A DNA stretch of 64,000 bases from Fistulifera solaris. Taxonomy: Eukaryota. Both the position numbers and the translations under genes were made by a program. Shown here one piece after another: positions 405 to 13,947 of the stretch. The notes beneath the pieces are model-generated. The model was not told where the DNA came from. It ran no database searches and worked only from the letters and a program-made list of their open reading frames with translations. The stretch is taken from assembly GCA_030295235.1 (NCBI GenBank), contig AP026124.1, positions 558,001-622,000 of the forward strand, given 5' to 3'. Positions within the stretch are counted from its first letter, which is position 1; the number at the start of each line of letters is the position of its first letter.

Positions 405-720
405 TAAAACGTGTCTAATCTGAACATTAATATCGACAGTACATGGTTCTTTGTTTCTTCTTTCTTCGGTTCTGGTCTTCTGTCATCGTTCTTCATTCTT
501 CATTTTTCAACTGTTGACTCTATACTGTATACTGTCCGATGTCCACTATGTCCGTTGTTCCGATAATCGATGATCGACTTTTCCGCGGTTTAGTTCAGAA
601 ATTGCCGAGCGACTAGCGACGGAAGAAAATAGTGGTCAGGTGACTTTTGGGATCGTTGCACTTCATTTTTCACCGTCCCCGTCCCGTTTTCTCCCAACGT
701 CCCTATCATTTTTTAAAAAG

Positions 721-1023: not shown

Positions 1024-3651
1024 TTATTTCGATACTTTGTACGCAGACACCAGCGTACTCACAAGCGACTTATCTTCAGGAGCTGCGGTGCGTTCACAAG
1101 CTAAAAGCATTGCACGGAATAGCTCTTGGTTTGACTCCGTGAAGTAAGTCGATCTTACCGCGTCGATGCACTTGGGAGTTTTCAGAAATAATCCGAAGCA
1201 GCGAACAAATTCCGAAGAAACAGGTGGTCTAGCACACTCGAGTACTCCACTGACAAAGTAACGAATGAGAGATGCATCCAAATCAGACGATCCGTGCTGC
1301 TCCATCTTTTGGGATAATTTTCCAAGTACATCCGGTATCTCGCCTTCCAGGAGTAGCATGATGAGGAGCCGGATACTTTGTTCCTTGATTGTAGTTACCT
1401 TTTGGTAAGAAATGTCTTGATTTGAATGTCCCAGAAAATTGACAGCAACTTCTATGACCCGCTTTCGTGTGAATGGATGCTTCATACTGATAGTGCGCAG
1501 TAGTGAGAGAATGCTTACAGAAATCGTCGGGAACGCGGGAGAGCTTGCAAAATCTGTACCGTGGGTAAATGCCTCGGCCCAAATGACAACGCCCTGGGCA
1601 ATCGCAGCGCAGTTTAAGGCTAGCGAGCACAGCTTTTCGCCAGGTGATGTTCCAGTCTTTGTCTCGTCCAAAAGCATCAGAAAGGAAACCATAGTTTCTA
1701 GCTGTTCACAAAGCTGACTCGCCTGTACTATCATCCTTGTGAGAGCTACTTCGTCCGAATAATAGTCAGCCATATTTCCATCTTCTCCTGTGGTCTTTTC
1801 GGCAGCTAGGACAGCAAATGCTAATAACCTTGCGCACTTGTTGCGGAGAACTGGAGCGACGACTCGCGTTGAGCCTGGCTTGAATAAGTGTTCCAACAAG
1901 GCTTTGATTGCGACAGGGTGTTCGACGAAAAGCCTTCCAGTATCCGCGAAGGATGTGATATCGATGCCGCTGGGAAGAAGAGAATCCAGGACTGCATCAT
2001 CTAATTGCATTCCAACAGAGTGTCGGCGGAGAAACGATAACAAAGCGGTCTCGAGTTGTTTTCTCGTCCCGTTGCCGTTCACTACATTTTTCTCATTGGA
2101 TGTCGGATCATTCTTCAGACGTCTCCTTTCGCTCTGGTGCAGTTCGCTCATGGTCAACGCAACATCCAGTCTTCGCTTTCGAAACAAATGCGAAGTCCCA
2201 CTGGCATTCGATGGCGTCGAGGGGTCGATCATTGAGTTTTCAAGGCTTTGCGAAAGGGCACGCCATTTCCGAATAGCTCTGTTAAGTCGGGAGCCTTTGT
2301 TATTTTCGGCAACCTCCAGCGCCCGAGTTTCCAGATGACGTAACATTTCCATCGAATACAAATAGGTGTACGAAGTAGAACAACACGCTCTCACCAAATC
2401 GTCAACCAGATCGTCTAGCTCCACGGCCGACGAAATGTCGCTTTCGGCTGACACTGATACATTCCCAATAAGTATGAGCTCAGACTGTAGCATAGCATTG
2501 AAAACTGCAAAATGATCGGATTGGTTCACCCGCTTTACAATTTCCCGATGGTGGCCGCGCTTTGATATAGCCTGTAAGCAATAAATGAGAACAGCACTGT
2601 CCTTATGAACGGCGGAGAGATCAATGAGCAGCTTCCGCCATCGAGATGAGTCCATCATTTCTTCCAAAAAAGCAGCTTCTGCTTTTGAAAGGTTCAAGAT
2701 TCGATCACCTGTTTCTTTCGAGAAACATTCCTTTACAAATCGGCTAATTACACCTTGAGTAATTTCTCGTACTGCATCCGTTGACTCTTGTGATGGACCA
2801 TCCTTAGGTGTACCAGCAGATGATGTAGCAGCCGTACGAAAATCAGCAAGCCAACGTCCCAGAAGCCCACAAATAGCCGTCTGACCGTGATAATTATCAA
2901 TGAGCGACGCGATCGCCTTCTGAGGCTGCCCACCTTCACTTCGTACAACTTCCGCCACGTTTTTGATACAACAAGGCTCTAGAATGGAATCGGTTTGATT
3001 CAAGGCTGCTTCCGCTTCCTGAACACGCAGTACTTCCGGGTCTACCCATTCTTCGGGGCTTTCTTGTTTCCTCGTCTCGAAAGTCTCTTCTCTGGGCGAT
3101 CTATGACGCTCTCCATCGCCTTCCATTTCGACTTGCATAGATTCCCCATCGGCGTCGTTGAGGTCACGACTAAGGTCTACATTGTTCGCCGATACATCGA
3201 CAGCTTCCGTTCCAGCTGTCTCCTCATCAACTTCCAGATCTTCGGCGGACACGACATGTTCGTCCGGTTTTTCCCATTGAGTTTCCCCTGTTGATGAGTT
3301 GTAATAGTATTCGCGTCCTTCTTCGTCTTTGTATGCAATCCATTGTGAGACGACCTCTTCGGTGGGTTTTTCTGCTGCATTGTCACCGGCTTCTTGCTGA
3401 TTACGGGTTGCTTCAGCTTGCTGGGCATCCGGATTCGCTTGGTCGGTATTGACATCATCCGCCGTAGCAACCTCAGTTTCCTCCCCCTCGACTATTTCCG
3501 GTGGATTGAACTTCTCATCTTCCGGTGGATCCCATGAGCTTTCTTCGGTGACGCTGTTGTAATAATAAAGTCGGCCTTCTTCGTCAAAGTAGGCTGACCA
3601 ATCATGCTTAGCGCTTTCTATTTGTGCTGTTTGTTCTGTTTGTTCGGACAT
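1024..3651 (-). CDS. NELFCD: Negative elongation factor C/D (TH1)-like protein with two N-terminal WW domains
   Basis: Two WW motifs (WSAYFDEEGRLYYYNSVTEESSWDPP; WIAYKDEEGREYYYNSSTGETQWEKP), then DSILEP...GGQPQKAIASLIDNYHGQTAICGLLGRWL resembling the TH1 N-terminus; single long ORF, first ATG at 3651. Confidence 0.8.
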   Translation of the reverse strand: MSEQTEQTAQIESAKHDWSAYFDEEGRLYYYNSVTEESSWDPPEDEKFNPPEIVEGEETEVATADDVNTDQANPDAQQAEATRNQQEAGDNAAEKPTEEVVSQWIAYKDEEGREYYYNSSTGETQWEKPDEHVVSAEDLEVDEETAGTEAVDVSANNVDLSRDLNDADGESMQVEMEGDGERHRSPREETFETRKQESPEEWVDPEVLRVQEAEAALNQTDSILEPCCIKNVAEVVRSEGGQPQKAIASLIDNYHGQTAICGLLGRWLADFRTAATSSAGTPKDGPSQESTDAVREITQGVISRFVKECFSKETGDRILNLSKAEAAFLEEMMDSSRWRKLLIDLSAVHKDSAVLIYCLQAISKRGHHREIVKRVNQSDHFAVFNAMLQSELILIGNVSVSAESDISSAVELDDLVDDLVRACCSTSYTYLYSMEMLRHLETRALEVAENNKGSRLNRAIRKWRALSQSLENSMIDPSTPSNASGTSHLFRKRRLDVALTMSELHQSERRRLKNDPTSNEKNVVNGNGTRKQLETALLSFLRRHSVGMQLDDAVLDSLLPSGIDITSFADTGRLFVEHPVAIKALLEHLFKPGSTRVVAPVLRNKCARLLAFAVLAAEKTTGEDGNMADYYSDEVALTRMIVQASQLCEQLETMVSFLMLLDETKTGTSPGEKLCSLALNCAAIAQGVVIWAEAFTHGTDFASSPAFPTISVSILSLLRTISMKHPFTRKRVIEVAVNFLGHSNQDISYQKVTTIKEQSIRLLIMLLLEGEIPDVLGKLSQKMEQHGSSDLDASLIRYFVSGVLECARPPVSSEFVRCFGLFLKTPKCIDAVRSTYFTESNQELFRAMLLACERTAAPEDKSLVSTLVSAYKVSK

Positions 3652-4178
3652 TGCATTCGGTGTATCCAAAGGAATGCAACTCAGCGATTGCTAATTTATT
3701 ACTAAGATATTTTCAGGTTTAGGATGGTGATGATTACAAGGGATGAATACTATTGCTCTAGGTCCTAGAGGTCAACGTTTACCAAATGCATTGCGATTTG
3801 CTATGGCGATGTGATGCCTTTCGGAGAACTTTTTATTTCTTTCTCATGTCGTACTGCTACCACGAACATAAAGCAAACTTACTCTGTGACAGAGATGTTG
3901 TTTCACTCTGACCTTCTTTCGTCGCCGCATTTCTCCCACCACTCCGCTGAGGATCGCATCATCTCTAGAAAAAATAACACGGCAAGCATCGTCGGCCTTT
4001 CTCGACACGAAAGTCAAGTTGAATTCTTGTTAAAGCGATCCAGCATAAATTGAGTCCGTTTTCACACTTTCACTACAAAGACACTTTCTACTCTCCTTTC
4101 ATCAGAACGGACACGGGTGACGGTCGGCAACTATTGAAGAGAGGCAGCACAAGGCATTCGACATTCAGGGTCGCTCCC

Positions 4179-7100
4179 ATGACTTCGTATGGCAGTATCC
4201 AAGGAAATATGTCGCCGTCGAACACCGACCCTCACGAAACAACTCCTCTCGTGAATGGTAGAAGCGACAGCAACATTGAACACGTGTCGACAAAGGGTGG
4301 TTACTGGTCAAAACTTACCTTTCACTGGTTTACGCCAGTTTTGTATCGAGGAAACGAAAAACTCAAACTCGATCAAGACGATCTTGCCCTCGTGCCTTTG
4401 TTAAATGACTGCGAGACCGACTATGTTACTACTACCTTCGATAAGTATTGGGAGGAAGAGCTACAGAAAGAGTGTCCTTCCTTGGTAAACGCTTTAGTCC
4501 GGTCGTTTGGTGCGGAATATCTAGAGGGTGCGGCCTTGAAACTCGTGCATGATCTATGCTTGTTTGTGGGGCCACAAGTTCTCCACAGCATGATTGTATT
4601 TCTTAGAGATCCCGATGCACCACTCTTATGGGGTTTGTGGCTCATTTTTGCTGTGACGATCAGTCAGTTGGCCATGAGCATTTGTCTCCGGCATTACTTT
4701 TATAAGGTAAGTGATTTACGATAGCCCCTATCTCTTTAAGCAGTTACAATGTGGAACATCTCACTGCTCTCCTCAAGTGCTACACAACTGGACTGCGAAC
4801 TCGAACGGCAATTGTCATGGCAGTGTATCGAAAAGCTCTACTTTTAAGTCCGGAAGAAAGACAAAGTCGTAGCATGGGTGAGATTACAAATCTTGCCTCG
4901 ATCGATGCACAGCGCTTACAAGGTACGAAACGAACTTCTTTGTTATATTGTTGATCCGATTGTTTCTTACCGCCATTAATACTACGAATAGACTTGACAA
5001 CGTATTTGAATGCTGTTTGGTCGAGTCCTCTCCAAATTGGCCTCGCTCTTTTCTTTCTGTGGAGGCAACTGGGTCCGAGCTCGTTGGGAGGCGTATCCGT
5101 CATTATTATTATGATCCCAGTAACAAAGTATATAGCGACTTGGATGGGCACTATGCAAGCAAACCTGATGAAAGCAAAAGACGAAAGAGTCGAGCTGAAT
5201 GCAGAAGTGTTGGGCGGAATGAAAGTCATCAAGTTTCAAGCCTGGGAAGAGTCGTTTCAAAAGAGAATACAAACGCTTCGTGAAGCGGAGCTAGCGCAAC
5301 TGCTGCGATATTTTTTGGGGACCTCATTTTCTCGCATGTTATGGGTATTCACACCGCTTTTGGTTGCCCTTGCGACCTTTTCTGCCTACGTTTGGAGCGG
5401 TCATAAACTCGACGTAGCTTCAGCGCTGACAGCTTTATCTCTTTTCGATCTTCTTCGATTTCCACTATTTATGCTGCCGCAAAGTAAGTTACTCCGAACT
5501 TAGTTCTCGCGTCTTCGATGTGCTTGTGTTCTCATATTCGTAATGACAGCCATCAATTCAATCATTGAAGCAGCGGTTTCAATTGATCGCCTTCGGGGCT
5601 TTTTCATTAGCGAAGAGCATCACGCAGTAGGACCGGGAAATTTGACAGAAAACGGAATCAACATTAATGGTGTTTCGGCTGTGTATGGCTCGAAAAACAC
5701 AGAAGGAGGGACTACCAGTCGAGCAGGGCGAAAGGACACATTGGAGAAGGATAAAGAAGTTGCTATTCTAAGGGCATTACTTTCAGACGCTGAGCAAGAA
5801 ATCCAGAAATTGCAAGGTGAACAACCCTTTTCGCGCCAAGAGCCAGTAATTGACCAGGCAGGCTCGTCGCTTTGTTTGCGAAGGGTGAATTTCAAAATCA
5901 ACCAAGGAGAAGTTATCGCCATTGTGGGCTCAGTTGGTAGTGGAAAAAGTTCGCTGATTAATAGCATTCTCGGCGAATTACGACTACTGACAGGCAAAAC
6001 TGAAGTAAAGGGAACCTTGGCGTATTTTTCTCAGACCCCTTTCATTATGAACGCATCCGTCCGCGATAACATATTGTTCGGTCACGTGAACGAGCCTCCC
6101 GACGAAGATCTCTATCAGCGCGCGCTCGATTGCTGTGCTTTGCGGCATGATCTGTCGTTATTACCCGATGGTGATCAGACTGAGATAGGTGAAAGAGGTA
6201 TTACGTTGTCGGGCGGGCAAAAAGCGAGGGTTGCTCTGGCGCGAGCTGTGTATCATAGAGCTGATATCACACTCGTTGACGATGCTCTTTCGGCTGTTGA
6301 TGCCCACGTGGCGAAGCACTTGTTTGATCGAGCTATTCTTGACGAGCTGATGCAGCCTACTATCCCAGGTAGTATGCGCAGTGTTGTCCTGGTTACCAAT
6401 GCTCTTCAATACTTGAATCATCCTAGAATCAACAAAATATACGTCATTGAAGAAGGTCGAATTGTGGAGGAAGGTTCTTATAGTTCATTGTCAAACAATC
6501 CAGATTCGGTTTTCGCCCGAATTTTATCGGTAATAAAAGATAACAAAGTGTCGAAAGACTTGTCAGAAACTGAAACCGATTCGAGTACGGAACCAAAGAA
6601 GACTCTAACTTCGACTCCAAGCGATAACGGGCATAATCTTACATCAAAGAAGACAAAGCCGTCTAAGCTGGTTTCCGAAGAGCTAAGAAAGACAGGGAAA
6701 ATTTCTACTGAGGCATATTTATCTTGGATACATGCATCGGGTGGCTTCATGATTGCCTTTTTCATTTTGGTTCTGTTCGCCGCGGGTGAGGGGGTGGGCT
6801 TTCTCTCAAATTGGTGGTTGACTTACTGGTCTCGACACGCAGATGAGGCGAGTCAGTTTAGTTTTCTTAGTACATATGCTATCATCAATCTATCTGCAGC
6901 TTTGGCAGGGGTTTTCCGCATGCTTTTTGTTGCTTTGGTCAGCCTGAAGGCCTCTCGTCATGTAAGATATATTTCGCTTTCATCTGTACTGATTGTCATT
7001 GCCGTTCGATTCTTATGTGGTTTCGTTGCAGTTGTTTGATGGTCTACTGAACGCGGTCCTCTTTGCGCCTATGTCATTTTTCGACACGACGCCTGTCGGA

Positions 7101-8764
7101 CGGTTGGTGAACCGATTTAGTAAAGGTACGTTGGAACCTGACTGACTAAGAGATTTATAAACTTTCAGAGAAGCCAGCACCTCATGATTCTTTCCAGATG
7201 TCTACACCATTGACGAGCAATTGGTCCAAACACTAAGAATGTACTTGCAGACTGTTTTTTCGATATTGAGTACATTTGTAGTCATATCAGGTGTTACTCC
7301 GACATTTCTTGTCGGTCTCGTCCCACTTTGTTTGTTTTACATATCTGAGCAGCGCTTTTTTTACGGTAAGTTTCAAAATACCTGTCCTTATAAATTTGGC
7401 GTTGTCATTTGTCTTACGCATATATATTCTTGTAGCTTACCTACCGCGAGATAAAACGGCTTGACTCTGTTCTTCGATCCCCGATATATGCTCTTCTGGG
7501 CGAAACAATAGATGGAGTTGCATGTATCCGAGCATTCTCAGCACAAAAATCACTGACAGATAGGCTCAAAGTTATGCTTGATGAACAGCAACATGCATAC
7601 TTTTTAACATGCACAGCGCAATCATGGCTGGCCGTCAGGTTGGAGCTAATCGGGACTTTGGTCATCACTTTCGCTACAACGAGTGCAGTTGTGGAACATG
7701 CTCTGTTTGGCGCAGATGAGACTTTTGCTGGATTGGCAGGACTGGCAATCTCGTACGCATTATCGGTCACGCAATCACTGAACTGGAGTGTTCGTATGGC
7801 CAGTGATCTCGAAGCTAATATGGTGGCCGTCGAGAGGGTGCAGGAATATTCCCAGATTCGTCACGAGGAGCTTCGCAATGCCGAACTGGACGAGAAACTC
7901 CCCCAAATTGGCCTGCGCACGGTGAAATTGTCTTCAAAGGAGCAAAGTTGCGTTACCGTCCCAACCTACCTTTAGTTCTCAAAGGCCTCGATTTACACAT
8001 ACCTTCGGGATCCAAGATTGGTGTTGTTGGGCGCACCGGTACGTTTTGATTTTCTCTTGAAAAATGCGTTTCCCCTCAAATCGACTTGAATTCTCATCGA
8101 CGTATATTCGGCTTCATTAGGGGCTGGAAAGTCGACGCTTATGGTGGCGCTAATGAGAATAGTTGAATTGGATGAAGGAAGTATTTCGATCGATGGTGTT
8201 GACATTCGACAGATTGGTCTAGGTAAATTGAGACGAAATGTTGCCGTTATACCCCAAGATCCTGTTCTATTTAGCGGAACAATCCGGAGCAACCTTGATC
8301 CATTCGACGAATTTAGCGATGAGCAGCTGCACACAGTTCTTGAAAGTGTTGGTCTCTACAAGAGAACCATGGAGGGATCTATGCACAGTTACTCATCGCT
8401 ACCGTTGGCTCGGGTTGATTCGATCGATGACACAGTAGTTGAAGGGGGTAATAACTATTCCGTTGGACAGCGGCAACTTGTAGTAATAGCCAGAGCGCTT
8501 CTCCAGGGAGCGAAGATAGTCATTATCGATGAAGCTACGGCAGCTGTTGATGCAGAGACGGACGCTGCAATTCAAAGAGTGCTGAGAGTGGAGTTTGCTA
8601 ACGCTACTTGTCTAACTGTCGCTCACAGATTGAACACGATCATGGACAGCGATTTTATTCTAGTCATGGACGATGGTAAACTTGCCGAGTTTGACAAGCC
8701 CGATGCTCTGGTGCGAAAGGGTGGCTTGTTTAGGGATCTTGTTAAAGCTGCTTCTCATGATTAA
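4179..8764 (+). CDS. ABC transporter subfamily C (MRP-like), multi-exon
   Basis: Two TMDs and two NBDs: [79 protein letters not shown]. Several short GT-AG introns and one apparent 1-nt frameshift near 7901-7907. Confidence 0.93.
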
Positions 8765-8996: not shown

Positions 8997-10850
8997 TTAG
9001 GCGCTTTCAGCTTCGGAGTTCTTCATCTCGGTCAACTGTTTCTTATACTTTTGACTTCGCCGGAATAAAATCAGTGCAAAGATCACAAGAATCACGCAAA
9101 GCAGACCTAGCCCAATGCTCAAACCAGGTGTGAGCGAGTTTTGGCCTTTTGATTTTGCGTTAGGCAACTCTGGTTGAACAGGACAATTAATTAACATAGC
9201 CTTTTCGATATCATAGTCCCAGCGAGGTGTCAGCTCCACGTCGCAATATGGGGCATCCAATGGGAAAACATTGTCTACGGGGCGCTCAAGACCGCCCATC
9301 TCTGTTTCCAGAATTCGAACTTTATTGATCGCATGAATGATAGTCTTCCGCGTGGTTATATCATTGAGAGGAGTTTTTCCAGAGTTCAAAAGGAGCAGTA
9401 CATTTTGAACATCATTTGAGAAGAAGACCGACAAATTATTGGTCTCTTCGTTACTTTCGATCTCAATCAGATCTTGCGCATTCAAAACACCAGATCCCCA
9501 AACCACGTCCAATAATCCATCTAACAACGCTTTCTTTACCTGTTCTGCTGTGTCGTATCTCACAACAAGTAGCTCTTCCACTTGAGAGGCACCTCCCCAG
9601 TAATTATCATGTCGAACAAATAGAACTTCATCATCAACAACATCCCCATCGGCATTTGTGGAAGACGTTCGACTACGAAACATGAAGGGTCCCGTACCCG
9701 AAATATTCTTTATCCCTGCACAGATGATGGATGAATCATTCTCAAGAGAAGTAAAATCTACCCATCCAGCATGACACGAGTTACCTGTCACAGGATCTTT
9801 ATCAACAAATGCTGCAGGCGATAACATTCGAAGGGGCCGAATAAAAGAGAGCTCCTGAAGGAAAGGGTAGTACACTGACTTGGTAATTACTACAAATGTG
9901 GCGGAATCTTCGCAGCTCCATTCCAATATTTGTTGCGGTAGTCCATACCAACCATGGTAATCGGCAGATAGCAGCGGTTCAACTAAAACGTGATCGAAAT
10001 TGAGCTTGGCTGCTTCACAATTCCAGGGTATACCGCCATGAAATGTGACCCCTTTTCGCAATGAAAACGTGTATTTCTGCCCCCCATTCGTGTGTGGCTC
10101 GACGTTATACGATTGTGCCAAGGCGGGAAGAATCTGACCGTACTCTCCGTAACTCACAAGACCTTCGTAGATCCAGTTATTTGCAAAAAATTCGTTGGGG
10201 CGGTAGGTGTGAGGATCAAGACGACCGACCGACTGAAAAATTCCCGTTTGGGCTCCAGGTGAGATGCGAACAGTGGTCGATCCGGAGAGAACTTGCAATC
10301 GATGCAGAGGGTAGTCAAATTGCTGTAACCCGGCTTGGTAGCCCGTCAACCTGTTGTTCATAACAGTCGGCACGCGTTTGCCCCACAACGGCAGCATGAC
10401 AGCCTGTTGATGAAGAACATTGTGTATATCTTTCCACTTCGTTTCACGCTCCCGGTGGTCCGACTCCTGAAGTACGTCCTGAATCATGTCGAAGATCGCT
10501 TCTCTAGATGCTGGTGGCTCCAAGTTGGCCATTGCATGATAATGTCCTTCATCGCCGGTCATCCATCCCGACGCGAACGAATGGGGATCGTAGGGGGCGC
10601 CCCACGTTTCACTAAACGACAGATGGAAGTCACCGGTCTCGTGAGCTTTGTTAAAATCTTCCTTGGACAGAAATCGTGGAGTAACTGTTATGCCCAGTCG
10701 TTTCAAATCCATTCGAATGCCGTCCTCAATTGAGACCAGAGAAACGTCCCCTTCTACCATAATGAAGTCGATAGCATGTTTCTTGCAATCGGCGGGGCCC
10801 GTTTGTGCCAGCAACATGGTAGGCACGAGAACCAGAAGCAAAGCCAACAT
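8997..10850 (-). CDS. NikA/CntA-like family-5 solute-binding protein, circularly permuted, with signal peptide and C-terminal TM anchor (ZCRP-B-like)
   Basis: Motifs TWGAPYDPHSF, VGRLDPHTY, YEGLV, YYPFLQELSFIRPLRMLSP, GTGPF, NYWG resemble E. coli NikA; hydrophobic N-terminus; TM helix GLSIGLGLLCVILVIFALILF followed by a basic tail; intronless. Confidence 0.88.
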   Translation of the reverse strand: MLALLLVLVPTMLLAQTGPADCKKHAIDFIMVEGDVSLVSIEDGIRMDLKRLGITVTPRFLSKEDFNKAHETGDFHLSFSETWGAPYDPHSFASGWMTGDEGHYHAMANLEPPASREAIFDMIQDVLQESDHRERETKWKDIHNVLHQQAVMLPLWGKRVPTVMNNRLTGYQAGLQQFDYPLHRLQVLSGSTTVRISPGAQTGIFQSVGRLDPHTYRPNEFFANNWIYEGLVSYGEYGQILPALAQSYNVEPHTNGGQKYTFSLRKGVTFHGGIPWNCEAAKLNFDHVLVEPLLSADYHGWYGLPQQILEWSCEDSATFVVITKSVYYPFLQELSFIRPLRMLSPAAFVDKDPVTGNSCHAGWVDFTSLENDSSIICAGIKNISGTGPFMFRSRTSSTNADGDVVDDEVLFVRHDNYWGGASQVEELLVVRYDTAEQVKKALLDGLLDVVWGSGVLNAQDLIEIESNEETNNLSVFFSNDVQNVLLLLNSGKTPLNDITTRKTIIHAINKVRILETEMGGLERPVDNVFPLDAPYCDVELTPRWDYDIEKAMLINCPVQPELPNAKSKGQNSLTPGLSIGLGLLCVILVIFALILFRRSQKYKKQLTEMKNSEAESA

Positions 10851-11473
10851 CTTACACGGAAGATGAGATCGAATATACGAATCTCCTCCAATTTGAGAGA
10901 GGCATACATCTACCGTTTTCTAGAAAAATTTGTGAGACCAAGGCCAAATATCATCAAAACATCAAGGCCTACAGGCATTTTGATTAAGCCTCAAATGAAG
11001 CTCGGTCGACAAACTCGGTGCTTGCTGTCTAGAGTTTTGGCTCCGTCTTGTTGTGTTTCCTATTTTTTGTTGTTGACATTGAAAGGCCTTGGCATTAAGA
11101 AGCCTCTTTGTTTGATCGTTGATGCTTAACGGCTTCAGCTAAAATTGAATCGTTTCAACTCAATTGTGAAAATCATTCACTTGTGTCGAGGTAAAAGAAA
11201 GATGAGGCTTTGGGCCTTGTCGAAGGCAATTTAAAGCCTATGACGGGTGACCAGTGACCAGCGCTTATAGTCCCGAATCTGTTAGGCCCTTGAAATAGCC
11301 TTGTTTTTCGTCACTTTTTCGCACACGACGCGACAACACAAGTCGTCGTCGCTTTTGGTTGAAGGAAGGCTACCAGTACCATTGTTAAGTGGCTGTCGGC
11401 AGGAATATTCTATCTGGAAAAGTAATACTCCGTACCAGGCAATATTCTTTCCACCTAAAATTATGACTCGACC
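10851..11473. promoter_or_regulatory. Putative bidirectional promoter shared by the NikA-like and ferric reductase genes
   Basis: 623 bp between divergent ATGs (10850 and 11474), with about ten AAGGCC/AAGCCT/GGCCTT-like copies. Confidence 0.55.
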
Positions 11474-13947
11474 ATGACACAAGTCGCTGGGATTATCGTG
11501 GCCTTGCTTGGCAGTCTTCTATTTCAACTGGAGAAAAGTTCAAGTAATATACTGTATTTTCATGGAAATAGCTGGAGCTGCACCACATGGCAAGAATGGA
11601 CATGGATCGCGGTCACAGGGCTAATTATGCTTATGTTTCAAATGAAACCAAACAGTCAGATCTACCCGCCGTCAGAACAAGCGAAGAGCAAGCTCTTTCT
11701 ATGCTTCTTGACGATAAACTTAGTATGGTTTTCTGCTGCCGTCTCGGAATTAGATTACACGTTCTCGGTAGTGAAGGCGGTGGAGTTTCTGGGGCGAAGG
11801 CTGCCTGGCCAGGCATGTGGAATTTAGCATTTTTCATTTTCCCCATCAAACGCTCGTCTGAAATATTCGCGATCTCACATAAAGATACTTTATTTCTTCA
11901 TATTTGGGCTGGAAAAGCCATCTTCTTGTGGCTAGCCGTCCACACGGTGCTCTTATCCATCGCATACGCCGTAAATTTTGACTATTCAGTCCGAAACTGG
12001 GCAAAGGTAATGATCCCATCAGGTGATCTGTATACAGAAGGTGTAGTGAATTTCATGGGGTGGCTTGGACTGGCCATGCTCCTACTTCTGTGGCTAACTT
12101 CTCGACCGTGGTTCCGCAAACACTGTTACGAGATGTTTTCCGTCCTGCACCTGATGACAGCCGCGTCCTTCATTCTGTTCTCAAATCTCCACGACTACAA
12201 CACAATCCATTTTGTACAACCGGCATTTGCTGCGTGGATCGCTGAGCGACTACTTCGGCGTATTTCAACCTTAAGGGTCATGATCGAAGAAACACAACCA
12301 CCTACTTCTACTGAAAATGGAATCCTTTCCAATGGCGGTATCCTCGCTGTATCGATTTGTAAAAGAAGTGGGAGAAAAGATTTTCCTCTTTTGGTGCGTC
12401 TGACCATGACTTTACCACGATCCTGGAATGTTTGTCCTGGTACGGCAGCATTCCTCTATCTGAAATGTCCGAGTATTTCCAACTGGCAGCTACATCCGTT
12501 CTCGATTAGCACGATTGATGTCGAAAGCATGACCTTTTCTGTACATATCAAAGCTCTCGGTGATTGGACTAATCAATTTGTTCGGCAAATAAATCAGCTC
12601 GTCATCAAAGCGGACTTGGAGCTCGACGCTCAGCAAACTGGTCGGCAGGAGACGAGTGAAACATCGCAGGATACCACGAACCATTTTGGTCTTTGCATTG
12701 AAGGTCCCTATTGCTCAGATCTTGGTGCACAATTGGATTCCAATCAAAAGTGCTTATTCATAGCTGGAGGAGTGGGTCTCACCGGCTTGTCTGAAGCCTT
12801 ATACCGCCGACACGGACGTGGACAAGCTACGCTACTGGTTTGGATCCTCCGCACTGTCGAGGAAATGGACTTTCTGGCCAAAGATTTACTTGATCGCCTA
12901 CAACCACCCCGGGACACAACACGAATCAAGGTGTTTATCACGCGCCAGAACGAGCATTGCGAACGTCGTCGCCGGCAGACCGCGAAATCGGATCACGCAC
13001 CGTTGCTGATGCCCGGCTACGTCAAGTCAATCGACGGGACTGCAGCGGCGAAGAATTCAATTTTGACGTTTTCTACAATTGTGGAAGAGACGTCCACAAA
13101 TCCAGATCAAAAAATGATGTCGATTGTCAGCCTTCTAGGAGTCTCCCTCAGTTTCTTGCTTGCTCGGATGACCTGCTGCAATAGGACCGTGCGTGACATT
13201 GAGACCGAAAGAATTCTCCACACCTGTTCCGCAGTGCCTAGGGCCTCGACCAGCATGACCTGTTCCAATTCATGCCAAGATGAGAACAATGGCATTCCTT
13301 GTTGTACCACGCCTATATGTTTCTACTGCTTCCGAGGGTTGCCCATTCTTTTCATGTTCTTCCTGGCTCCTTTGTTACCTCTTCTGTTTGCGTGGGTATA
13401 TCCGTACTGTATTCATGTCACGAAATGGGTGGGCAAAGCCCTCCGACCTCATCAACTTGCACCAGAGTTTCGATCTTGTACGTCAGTACCGCTTCAAATG
13501 GCGGGTCAGTCGGCATCTGCAGTGGAGGATACCACCGAAAATTCCGCAGCATACGGCGATGCCATGAACGGTTCGTTGCGAGTGATAGACAATTTGTGTC
13601 ATCGAAACGCGTCTGTCGTCATGACCAATCTCAATCACACCACTGTTGAGTATCGAAAACCAAATTTGTCGAAAATTGTTCAAGAGTTCGGTGCCTCCGT
13701 TTACAGAAACGATGACGAAGACTTTGCTATCAGCGAAAATAGCAACGTCCGGCGAGACGCGGAAATGAAAGAGGCCGCGGTATTTGTTTGCGGATCCAAA
13801 GCTCTCGCTGAAAATGTGTTGAAGGAGGTGGAAATTCACAATACTGATAACATACGCAATGACGAAAGAAGCACGTCATCTCATGAAGCTTTCCGGTCTA
13901 ACCGACGTGTTTATTTGTCAGTATGGACGGCCACCGGGGCCTATTGA
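11474..13947 (+). CDS. Ferric reductase (FRE/FRO, NOX-family flavocytochrome)
   Basis: Heme His pairs (LHIWAG...AVH; LHLMT...NLH), FAD motif HPFSI, IKALGDWT, EGPY, AGGVGLT, FVCGSKAL; N-terminal TM ORF 11474-11827 joins the main frame if one G is added at 11791-11794. Confidence 0.88.

Follow-up and report, generated by a model that had tools for sequence, protein, structure and literature searches.

The 64,000-nucleotide stretch of Fistulifera solaris DNA that we analysed (contig AP026124.1, positions 558,001 to 622,000; hereafter the window) carries on its reverse strand a gene for a 617-residue protein, P0001, that is a new structural variant of a known binding-protein family. P0001 resembles the bacterial solute-binding protein NikA, with the two parts of the NikA chain in swapped order, and this permutation is real and clean, extends through the whole family and falls at a single place on the tree. 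We read P0001 as a natural circular permutant of a NikA/CntA-type cluster-C solute-binding protein that would serve as a surface receptor for metal chelates, with a ferric reductase (FRE) as its probable partner, and we put the probability of this reading at roughly 75%. An original prediction, made from the DNA letters, had proposed both the permutation and a use for it in membrane anchoring; the evidence below bears out the first proposal and does not support the second.

Swapped order of the NikA parts

P0001 matched the Pfam family SBP_bac_5 (PF00496) with 127.2 bits, against a cut-off of 32.4, and belongs to it as a permuted member: its chain does not follow the canonical order of lobe I start, lobe II and lobe I end. 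The matches to NikA were swapped and not colinear, as the original prediction had proposed. In a phmmer search of PDB sequences, Escherichia coli NikA matched P0001 at E 6e-55 through two stretches in swapped order, with residues 207–555 corresponding to NikA 13–319 (independent E value 1.6e-37) and residues 32–155 to NikA 347–467 (independent E value 5.6e-11). BLASTP against P0147, a relative of canonical order, gave the same picture: residues 192–542 aligned with P0147 26–383 (1e-67), and residues 27–187 with P0147 417–579 (4e-16). In P0147, the old N-terminus comes directly after the signal peptide. These limits indicate that the old C- and N-termini are joined in P0001 by four residues, 188–191 (Table 1). 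The boundary predicted near position 10290 coincides exactly with the codon for residue 187, at which the old C-terminal part ends. The new termini open directly after the YDxxKA helix (NikA 312–321), as had also been proposed, and the hairpin that follows this helix in NikA (approximately 322–344) and in P0147 (about 18 residues, approximately 399–416) is missing from P0001.

An AlphaFold2 model of P0001, built on 50 homologues, had a mean predicted local distance difference test score (pLDDT) of 87.2 and a predicted template modelling score (pTM) of 0.80, with pLDDT of 94–96 across the joint. Sequential structure alignment placed model residues 190–192 on NikA 2–4 and continued through to model residues 554–562 on NikA 318–330. 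Comparison with NikA chains gave Z scores of 25.7–26.2 and root-mean-square deviations of 2.1–4.2 Å over 316–323 residues, and Foldseek covered approximately 370 columns. The bilobed fold could be superposed on both NikA and CntA over model residues 165–562 (Z 25.5–26.2). On the basis of the weaker of the two phmmer matches and their high pLDDT, residues 25–187 would complete the NikA-like lobes. The modelled chain would thus start in the middle of lobe II (NikA ~345), run to the old C-terminus in lobe I and cross the four-residue joint; lobe I would follow, then the first half of lobe II, and the chain would end after the helix equivalent to NikA 312–321. At either end of this fold lie the probable signal peptide and strong C-terminal transmembrane helix that had been read from the sequence: residues 1–20 are hydrophobic (hydropathy 1.78), and a hydropathy window at 571–601 has its core at approximately 576–596.

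A tandem form provides a natural control. P0296 (1320 residues, eukprot g251.t1) consists of two near-identical permuted copies in frame, and Pfam reads one complete SBP_bac_5 domain across the junction between them (residues 375–772, profile positions 2–364 of 368), whereas the best SBP_bac_5 stretch of P0001 alone ends at profile position 269. Two permuted copies in tandem therefore restore the reference order across their junction. Either the duplication in P0296 is real or two near-identical copies were fused in the gene model.

One alternative keeps the swapped order and places its effect elsewhere: the two segments might pair across chains in a dimer instead of folding within one chain. 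The joint of just four residues is compatible with such a domain swap. However, the monomer model is confident through this joint, and the canonical N- and C-terminal strands of such binding proteins both belong to lobe I; we consider a domain swap very unlikely.

Composition is even (GC content 0.43–0.48), and no second copy or stray NikA-like exon was found within the 64-kb window. The one public sequencing run with this stretch, X1, covered it at even depth across genes and spacers and without joints; it thus behaves as DNA and is silent on transcription. A mis-assembly, or a gene model in which two neighbouring tandem NikA-like genes are fused, the end of the first to the start of the second, is refuted for practical purposes: although eukaryotic gene models are error-prone and in-frame tandems such as P0296 exist in the family, the window holds a single unbroken open reading frame (ORF) that has a signal peptide where it begins and a membrane helix where it ends, the DNA-like run passes through it without joints, and all 154 permuted proteins, which come from independent genomes, metagenomes and transcriptomes, have the same junction.

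In run X1, a second, slightly different version of parts of the gene appeared at 9416–9891, 10350–10572 and 12441–12519, as clusters of substitutions in separate contigs. A 93%-identical protein, also named Fistulifera solaris, shares a 90% cluster with P0001. Together, the second version and this sibling fit two alleles or homeologues.

One junction throughout an algal family

We measured domain order with two profiles cut from alignment A1, the first covering the old C-terminal part and the second the old N-terminal part, which we ran over 271 proteins. These comprised a close set of 121 (P0001 and the 120 matches listed) and 150 representatives from an exhaustive search. The permuted order was present in 121 of 121 proteins of the close set. 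Among the representatives, 33 were permuted, 44 were canonical and 1 was a canonical tandem; the others were fragments with the N segment only (54) or the C segment only (18). The distance between the two profile segments was 20–26 residues in each of the 154 permuted proteins, pointing to one common junction. Named permuted members came from the diatoms Fistulifera, Thalassiosira, Skeletonema, Nitzschia and Coscinodiscus, from Symbiodinium, from the green alga Chloropicon and from the haptophyte Diacronema, and MMETSP transcripts marked complete carry the same order (P0010). Over-long forms were limited to three matches: the tandem P0296; P0297, whose gene model is probably chimeric, combining Cu-monooxygenase, RhoGAP and SH3 domains; and a distant archaeal protein.

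The original prediction had called for a survey of domain order in algae and bacteria: the algal family is permuted, and 0 of 12 loci in prokaryotic genomes were, with 10 canonical and 2 showing one segment only, in a scan limited to two peptide patterns and hence weak evidence of absence. The prediction had also supposed the permutation to be undescribed. This fits our literature searches, in which nothing relevant appeared, by title or abstract, on circular permutation in solute-binding proteins, periplasmic binding proteins or NikA.

A probable single origin inside an anchored clade

We next placed the two orders on a tree built from the colinear segment only, so that nothing was re-ordered. 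This tree, from a quick search, had 83 rows. The 41 canonical rows complete in the colinear segment were all used; from the 130 complete permuted rows we took 42, namely all representatives, 13 selected named members and every sixth one of those remaining. All 42 fell on one side of a single branch, with a support of 92 in the Shimodaira–Hasegawa-like approximate likelihood ratio test (SH-aLRT). This branch was nested in a clade with starred support of 100 that also contained eight eukaryote-like rows of canonical order (P0153; P0147 and P0150; and P0172, P0246, P0163, P0219 and P0223), and 33 bacterial-like rows fell on the other side. P0127 was sister to all other permuted rows (99, starred) and is the earliest-branching permuted lineage. 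Rooted among the bacterial rows, the single branch indicates that the permutation arose once, in the eukaryote-like branch.

According to the original prediction, the permutation repositioned the C-terminus so that it could be anchored in the membrane, and one could argue that it was selected on that account. A stalk and membrane helix directly follow the new C-terminus in P0001, and among the 117 permuted proteins in which both segments are complete, 115 had a tail of at least 30 residues, with a membrane helix in 109 of these. However, a C-terminal membrane helix was also found in six of the nine canonical cousins checked, namely the eight on the tree and P0243; those anchored were P0147, P0150, P0172, P0219, P0223 and P0243. 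Anchoring thus did not need the permutation, which switches the tethered lobe from lobe I to lobe II and not the tethering itself. In addition, a juxtamembrane EKxGxPxF motif stands directly after the membrane helix in both the permuted, non-diatom P0100, P0123 and P0128 and the canonical P0172, P0219, P0223 and P0243. Because canonical cousins are anchored and this motif is common to both orders, the anchor is probably older than the permutation, and selection for a suitably placed C-terminus appears improbable. Diatom members, including P0001 (residues 597–617), carry a basic tail of the [RK][RK]S..LE..L type, not EKxGxPxF; these tail motifs may be sorting or endocytosis signals.

These observations are consistent with a history in which the permutation arose once, inside an already membrane-anchored eukaryotic (algal) branch, and was inherited by diatoms, dinoflagellates, green algae and haptophytes. 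The likeliest route would be internal duplication in frame, after which the outer halves were lost, with the surface hairpin of approximately 20 residues (NikA ~322–344) lost at the cut; as P0296 illustrates, in-frame tandems of the permuted gene do occur.

Co-occurring cysteines at the new ends

P0001 has eight cysteines, at residues 22, 278, 313, 359, 377, 536, 556 and 585, the last inside the membrane helix. The prediction had noted cysteines flanking both new ends, and Cys22 and Cys556 are indeed as described: in a MAFFT alignment of the 154 permuted proteins, both were cysteine in 119 of the 119 sequences with residues at both columns. Both terminal cysteines are absent from P0127, as read from its sequence. 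No cysteine stood at either cut point in the five canonical cousins read across the region, and by hmmalign the Cys556 column was a gap in all nine canonical cousins, in which the Cys22 column is not reliably aligned. At the P0296 junction, the C-terminal and N-terminal cysteines are three residues apart, which indicates that the two ends can lie close together.

The other cysteines also follow patterns. Cys278 and Cys313 occur together in permuted proteins and are absent together from P0147 and P0172. Cys359 and Cys377 bound an inserted loop in both chain orders, the loop being present in canonical P0147 as well. Cys536, in a PYCD motif, is cysteine in 112 of the 129 permuted proteins with a residue there, in 8 of 9 canonical eukaryote-like proteins and in 17 of 35 bacterial rows; E. 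coli NikA has alanine. By elimination and co-occurrence, a bond between Cys22 and Cys556 is the likely fourth pairing state. Going by this pattern of co-evolution, the two cysteines most likely form a disulfide that staples the ends of the cut.

A retained but altered binding site

Six residues of the NikA site have equivalents in P0001 that are invariant or nearly so in the family: Tyr22, His98, Trp100, Arg137, Trp398 and Tyr402 of NikA correspond to Tyr216, His299, Trp301, Arg338, Trp83 and Tyr87. We take Arg137 to be the chelate-binding arginine of NikA, and the roles of the other site residues, apart from His416, are likewise our assumption. At the Arg338 column, arginine was present in all 136 aligned permuted proteins, all nine canonical eukaryote-like proteins and 32 of 33 bacterial ones. 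The cleft draws on both segments and, judged from these alignments, looks functional but re-tuned. The nickel ligand of NikA proper, His416, is replaced by Glu101 in P0001; this column holds glutamate in 124 of the 142 permuted proteins and in five of eight eukaryote-like ones of canonical order, and histidine in 18 of 35 bacterial rows. Similarly, the equivalent of Arg97 is Trp, Tyr or Lys in the eukaryote-like clade and Arg in most bacterial rows. Both changes are found in both chain orders, which suggests that the change of ligand came before the permutation.

Databases present such proteins as nickel-binding, which would make P0001 a nickel-binding protein supplying urease. Homologues are named 'nikA' or 'nickel ABC transporter' in their source records, and Nunn et al. 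(2013) read a Thalassiosira pseudonana protein in this way. These nickel names, however, are automatic, and the title of PDB entry 3qim describes His416, here glutamate in most permuted proteins, as essential for nickel uptake. NikB and NikC homologues were undetected in Phaeodactylum tricornutum proteomes, according to Kellogg et al. (2022; PMC9010474). With the Arg97 position altered as well, a role in nickel supply looks improbable, and the site would better fit a metal chelate other than Ni-(His)2. The retained arginine and aromatic residues, together with glutamate in place of His416, most likely indicate capture of an organically complexed divalent metal.

Head-to-head pairing with a ferric reductase

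In the window, the receptor gene lies head-to-head with a gene for a ferric reductase of the NOX/FRE type, across a spacer presumed to hold a shared promoter region (Table 1). We examined 80 metagenome loci encoding relatives of 41–61% identity, of which 27 extended at least 1500 bases upstream. In 20 of these 27, an FRE ORF lay directly upstream on the opposite strand; 15 of these neighbours were confirmed by Pfam, and 5 rested on tblastn only, being near-copies of confirmed ones. After clustering at 85% identity, with the window included, the head-to-head FRE was present in 10 of 17 lineages (loci including L001, L006, L027, L032, L035, L044, L048, L058, L066, L074 and L080). In the other lineages, the divergent upstream neighbour was a ferroportin gene in L064 (1172–2926, minus strand; FPN1, 1.2e-85) and Mg-chelatase lay upstream in L079; L046 and L055 gave no family match in the ORFs scanned, L047 and L077 were unscanned, and L018 had no ORF of at least 110 residues. 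Our literature search on diatoms, ferric reductase, solute-binding and NikA returned no report of an FRE/NikA-like pairing.

Other linkages were occasional. Downstream of the receptor gene, a CobW/COG0523 gene of the ZCRP-A family (4.6e-59) was present at L032:8250–9557 and L034:5268–6575 (both plus strand), forming an FRE/NikA-like/COG0523 cluster. The permuted domain was fused to, or adjoined, a FhuD-type Peripla_BP_2 domain, on either side, in P0127 (1037 residues, in a cluster with a Diacronema lutheri member), P0091 (981 residues) and L080 (ORF 3497–4909); the window protein itself had no match to this family (PF01497).

On its other side, the NikA-like gene has a convergent neighbour: two ORFs that encode ATP-binding cassette (ABC) ATPase domains, and that probably belong as exons to a single transporter gene, reach to 233 bp from its stop codon, and among the ORFs scanned in this gene (5543–8764) only ATPase-domain matches were found. 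Further neighbours in the window are eukaryotic (WW/TH1, SET, DEAD helicase and rhomboid).

At L029:6277–7542 (minus strand), an ORF with D5_N and DUF5906 matches adjoins the FRE/NikA-like pair. Primase-helicases of the D5_N/DUF5906 type occur in large DNA viruses and mobile elements. A viral origin, considered on account of this ORF, was rejected: the viral contigs scanned held no relative of the NikA-like protein, with 0 of 15 pattern matches.

Table 1 Features of the P0001 gene and its neighbours (positions in the window)
Feature	Position	Strand	Basis
Whole ORF, permuted NikA-like binding protein P0001, 617 residues and stop	8997..10850	-	Uninterrupted ORF; Pfam and NikA matches
Residues 1–20, hydrophobic N-terminal stretch, probable signal peptide with a putative cleavage site	10791..10850	-	Hydropathy 1.78; model helix 2–14 at low pLDDT
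Cys22 at the new N-terminus, 3 residues ahead of the first strand	10785..10787	-	Cys in 124/127 aligned residues
Residues 25–187, old C-terminal third (NikA ~345–500): second half of lobe II and last strand of lobe I	10290..10778	-	phmmer, BLASTP; pLDDT 77–96 by block
Glu101, aligned with NikA His416	10548..10550	-	phmmer alignment
Residues 188–191 (LSGS), joint of old C- and N-termini	10278..10289	-	BLASTP limits against P0147; pLDDT 94–96
Residues 192–555, old N-terminal two thirds (NikA 4–319): lobe I and first half of lobe II	9186..10277	-	phmmer, BLASTP, structure alignment
Residue 298, aligned with NikA Arg97	9957..9959	-	Alignment
Arg338, aligned with NikA Arg137	9837..9839	-	phmmer alignment
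Residues 359–377, Cys-bounded loop inserted relative to NikA	9720..9776	-	Gap in NikA; Cys359 and Cys377 invariant
Cys536, motif PYCD	9243..9245	-	Sequence
Cys556 at the new C-terminus of the fold, directly after helix 548–555	9183..9185	-	Invariant in alignment A1; Cys in 134/135 aligned residues
Residues 557–575, flexible stalk	9126..9182	-	pLDDT <50 at 562–571
Residues 576–596, membrane helix (hydropathy window 571–601)	9063..9125	-	Hydropathy 3.08; model helix 573–610
Residues 597–617, short basic tail of 21 residues, called cytosolic	9000..9062	-	Read from sequence
Ferric-reductase (NOX/FRE) gene, 786-residue ORF, divergent	11587..13947	+	Ferric_reduct 2.5e-12, FAD_binding_8 4.9e-12, NAD_binding_6 7.6e-8
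Spacer between the divergent genes, 736 bp; presumed shared promoter region	10851..11586	.	Coordinates
ORF pair with ABC ATPase domains, probable exons of a single ABC transporter gene	5543..7039, 8141..8764	+	Pfam

Comparison with known receptors

P0001 shares the SBP_bac_5 family and bilobed fold of E. coli NikA (1uiu/1uiv, 3qim) and Brucella NikA (4oer), with approximately 31% identity over 317–323 superposed residues. It differs in its permuted order, the loss of the hairpin at ~322–344, the change of His416 to glutamate and that of Arg97 to an aromatic residue or lysine, and it adds the Cys-bounded loop, extra cysteine pairs and a C-terminal membrane helix. NikA works with NikBCDE; for P0001, which is eukaryotic, no NikBCDE partner is known.

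CntA is the staphylopine–metal receptor of Staphylococcus aureus and binds Co, Ni and Zn as metallophore complexes. Its fold (5yh5/5yhe/5yh8) is common to P0001 (Z 25.5–25.8, 26–27% identity), although CntA has the canonical order and is a lipoprotein of an ABC importer. By analogy, we propose that P0001 binds in the CntA manner, as a metal–metallophore complex.

The closest relatives of canonical order are the algal P0147, P0150, P0172, P0219, P0223 and P0243, from metagenomes and transcriptomes, in the fully supported clade described above. They share with P0001 the Cys-bounded loop and the glutamate aligned with His416, and likewise carry a signal peptide and a membrane helix at the C-terminus; unlike P0001, they retain the hairpin at the cut site and are anchored on lobe I.

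Among characterized algal proteins, ZCRP-B offers the nearest description. The main text of Kellogg et al. (2022; PMC9010474) presents ZCRP-B as a NikA-like protein (30.5% identity to E. coli NikA) that is related to CntA, sits at the plasma membrane with one membrane helix and is induced when Zn/Co are low; the homologues it reports come from diatoms, dinoflagellates and prymnesiophytes. Of the two P. tricornutum identifiers given there, 41508 and 49168, ZCRP-B is 49168. As judged from its sequence, P0001 likewise has a NikA-like ectodomain and one membrane helix, and the window family matches ZCRP-B in description and spread, the two having been compared by description. In that main text, neither words starting with 'permut' or 'rearrang' nor the term 'ferric reductase' occur.

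The gene arrangement has a parallel in iron uptake. In P. tricornutum, FBP1 (FhuD-like) and FRE2 are divergent and approximately 1.5 kb apart, and the abstract of Coale et al. (2019; PMC6876252) describes a siderophore assimilation process that depends on reduction. Like the pair in the window, FBP1–FRE2 combines a receptor derived from a bacterial solute-binding protein with a head-to-head ferric reductase of the NADPH-oxidase type, and some relatives of P0001 are fused to Peripla_BP_2, the family of FBP1. FBP1 itself is a cluster A, FhuD-type, iron-responsive protein that is not reported as permuted, whereas P0001 belongs to cluster C and is not a FhuD/Peripla_BP_2 receptor.

Candidate ligands and partners

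From the evidence assembled here, P0001 would be a single-pass cell-surface protein with a permuted NikA/CntA-type ectodomain, a disulfide that most likely staples the cut, and a stalk of approximately 20 residues, a membrane helix and a short tail that together would tether lobe II, where canonical-order relatives are tethered by lobe I. It would most likely capture an organically complexed divalent metal at the cell surface, for which the ZCRP-B literature makes Zn/Co the best guess, and hand the metal on to other membrane proteins, with the head-to-head ferric reductase as the best candidate partner.

The strongest alternative concerns the metal. P0001 might be a receptor for ferric or other redox-active metal chelates of a siderophore-like kind, working with the neighbouring reductase and not specific to Zn/Co. 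The recurrent FRE pairing, the FBP1–FRE2 precedent and the Peripla_BP_2 domains beside the permuted domain in haptophyte-type proteins and L080 all favour this view, as do the title of a PDB entry recording that NikA binds Fe-EDTA and the invariance of Arg338. Against it, ZCRP-B responds to Zn/Co (PMC9010474, main text), the L032 locus links the gene to a COG0523 gene, and a T. pseudonana 'Ni-ABC transporter (NikA)', which may be the same protein, was the protein most down-regulated under iron limitation (2.87-fold) in Nunn et al. (2013). We regard a redox-active ligand as a possibility to be taken seriously, but as distinctly less probable than the broader reading of P0001 as a metal-chelate receptor.

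More tentatively still, the permuted receptor and the head-to-head FRE might form a conserved two-gene module by which eukaryotic phytoplankton obtain trace metals held in strong organic complexes. At the cell surface, the stapled receptor, tethered by lobe II, would capture the metal chelate; acting on it directly or by way of superoxide, the reductase would labilise the complex (for example, with Co(III) or Fe(III) ligands), and the metal would be released to a transporter. Retention of the permutation might then be explained by the fixed orientation that it gives the cleft towards the membrane partner.

Several points weigh against reading P0001 as a permuted metal-chelate receptor with a reductase partner. 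On the structural side, Foldseek and VIA-align are sequential aligners and aligned only model residues 165–564, although it is expected for a permutant that residues 1–190 should lie outside such alignments. On the evolutionary side, the support of 92 for the permuted branch comes from a quick search and is below the 95 at which a star is given, the root among the bacterial rows is assumed, and the eukaryotic nature of the canonical-order cousins is deduced from their signal peptide, C-terminal helix, tail motif and sources. Orthology of P0001 with ZCRP-B is plausible on the shared features, but the sole membrane helix of ZCRP-B is reported 'near the N-terminus' in P. tricornutum, where that of the window family is C-terminal, and overexpression of ZCRP-B left Co uptake unchanged (both in the main text of PMC9010474). 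No protein named T. pseudonana or P. tricornutum appeared among the 120 matches listed for each of the P0001 and Thalassiosira profunda searches. Zinc is not redox-active, which makes a reductase partner hard to reconcile with this metal; no FRE neighbour was found in 7 of the 17 lineages, and the FRE/NikA-like/COG0523 cluster represents one lineage only. A surface receptor for complexed metal, probably acting with the neighbouring reductase, is nevertheless the function that the sequence evidence best supports.

Implications for phytoplankton metal receptors

Marine diatoms and other phytoplankton have been proposed to capture Zn/Co with high affinity at the cell surface through ZCRP-B-type proteins, which are also used in the field as biomarkers of zinc stress. 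Should the whole family be permuted, colinear alignments and homology models based on NikA or CntA would be wrong for a third of the protein, and the tether would lie on the other lobe from that of bacterial lipoprotein binding proteins and canonical cousins. Tags, truncations and expression constructs would then have to respect the new termini and the probable terminal disulfide. The family also offers permuted and unpermuted anchored sister lineages that coexist, together with a tandem form that illustrates conversion between the two orders. The conserved head-to-head FRE gives a testable hypothesis for the partner of ZCRP-B, and the occasional linkage to COG0523, ferroportin or FhuD-type domains points the same way. 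If the receptor and reductase do form a module, ZCRP-B would be a receptor for a metal chelate and not for bare Zn2+.

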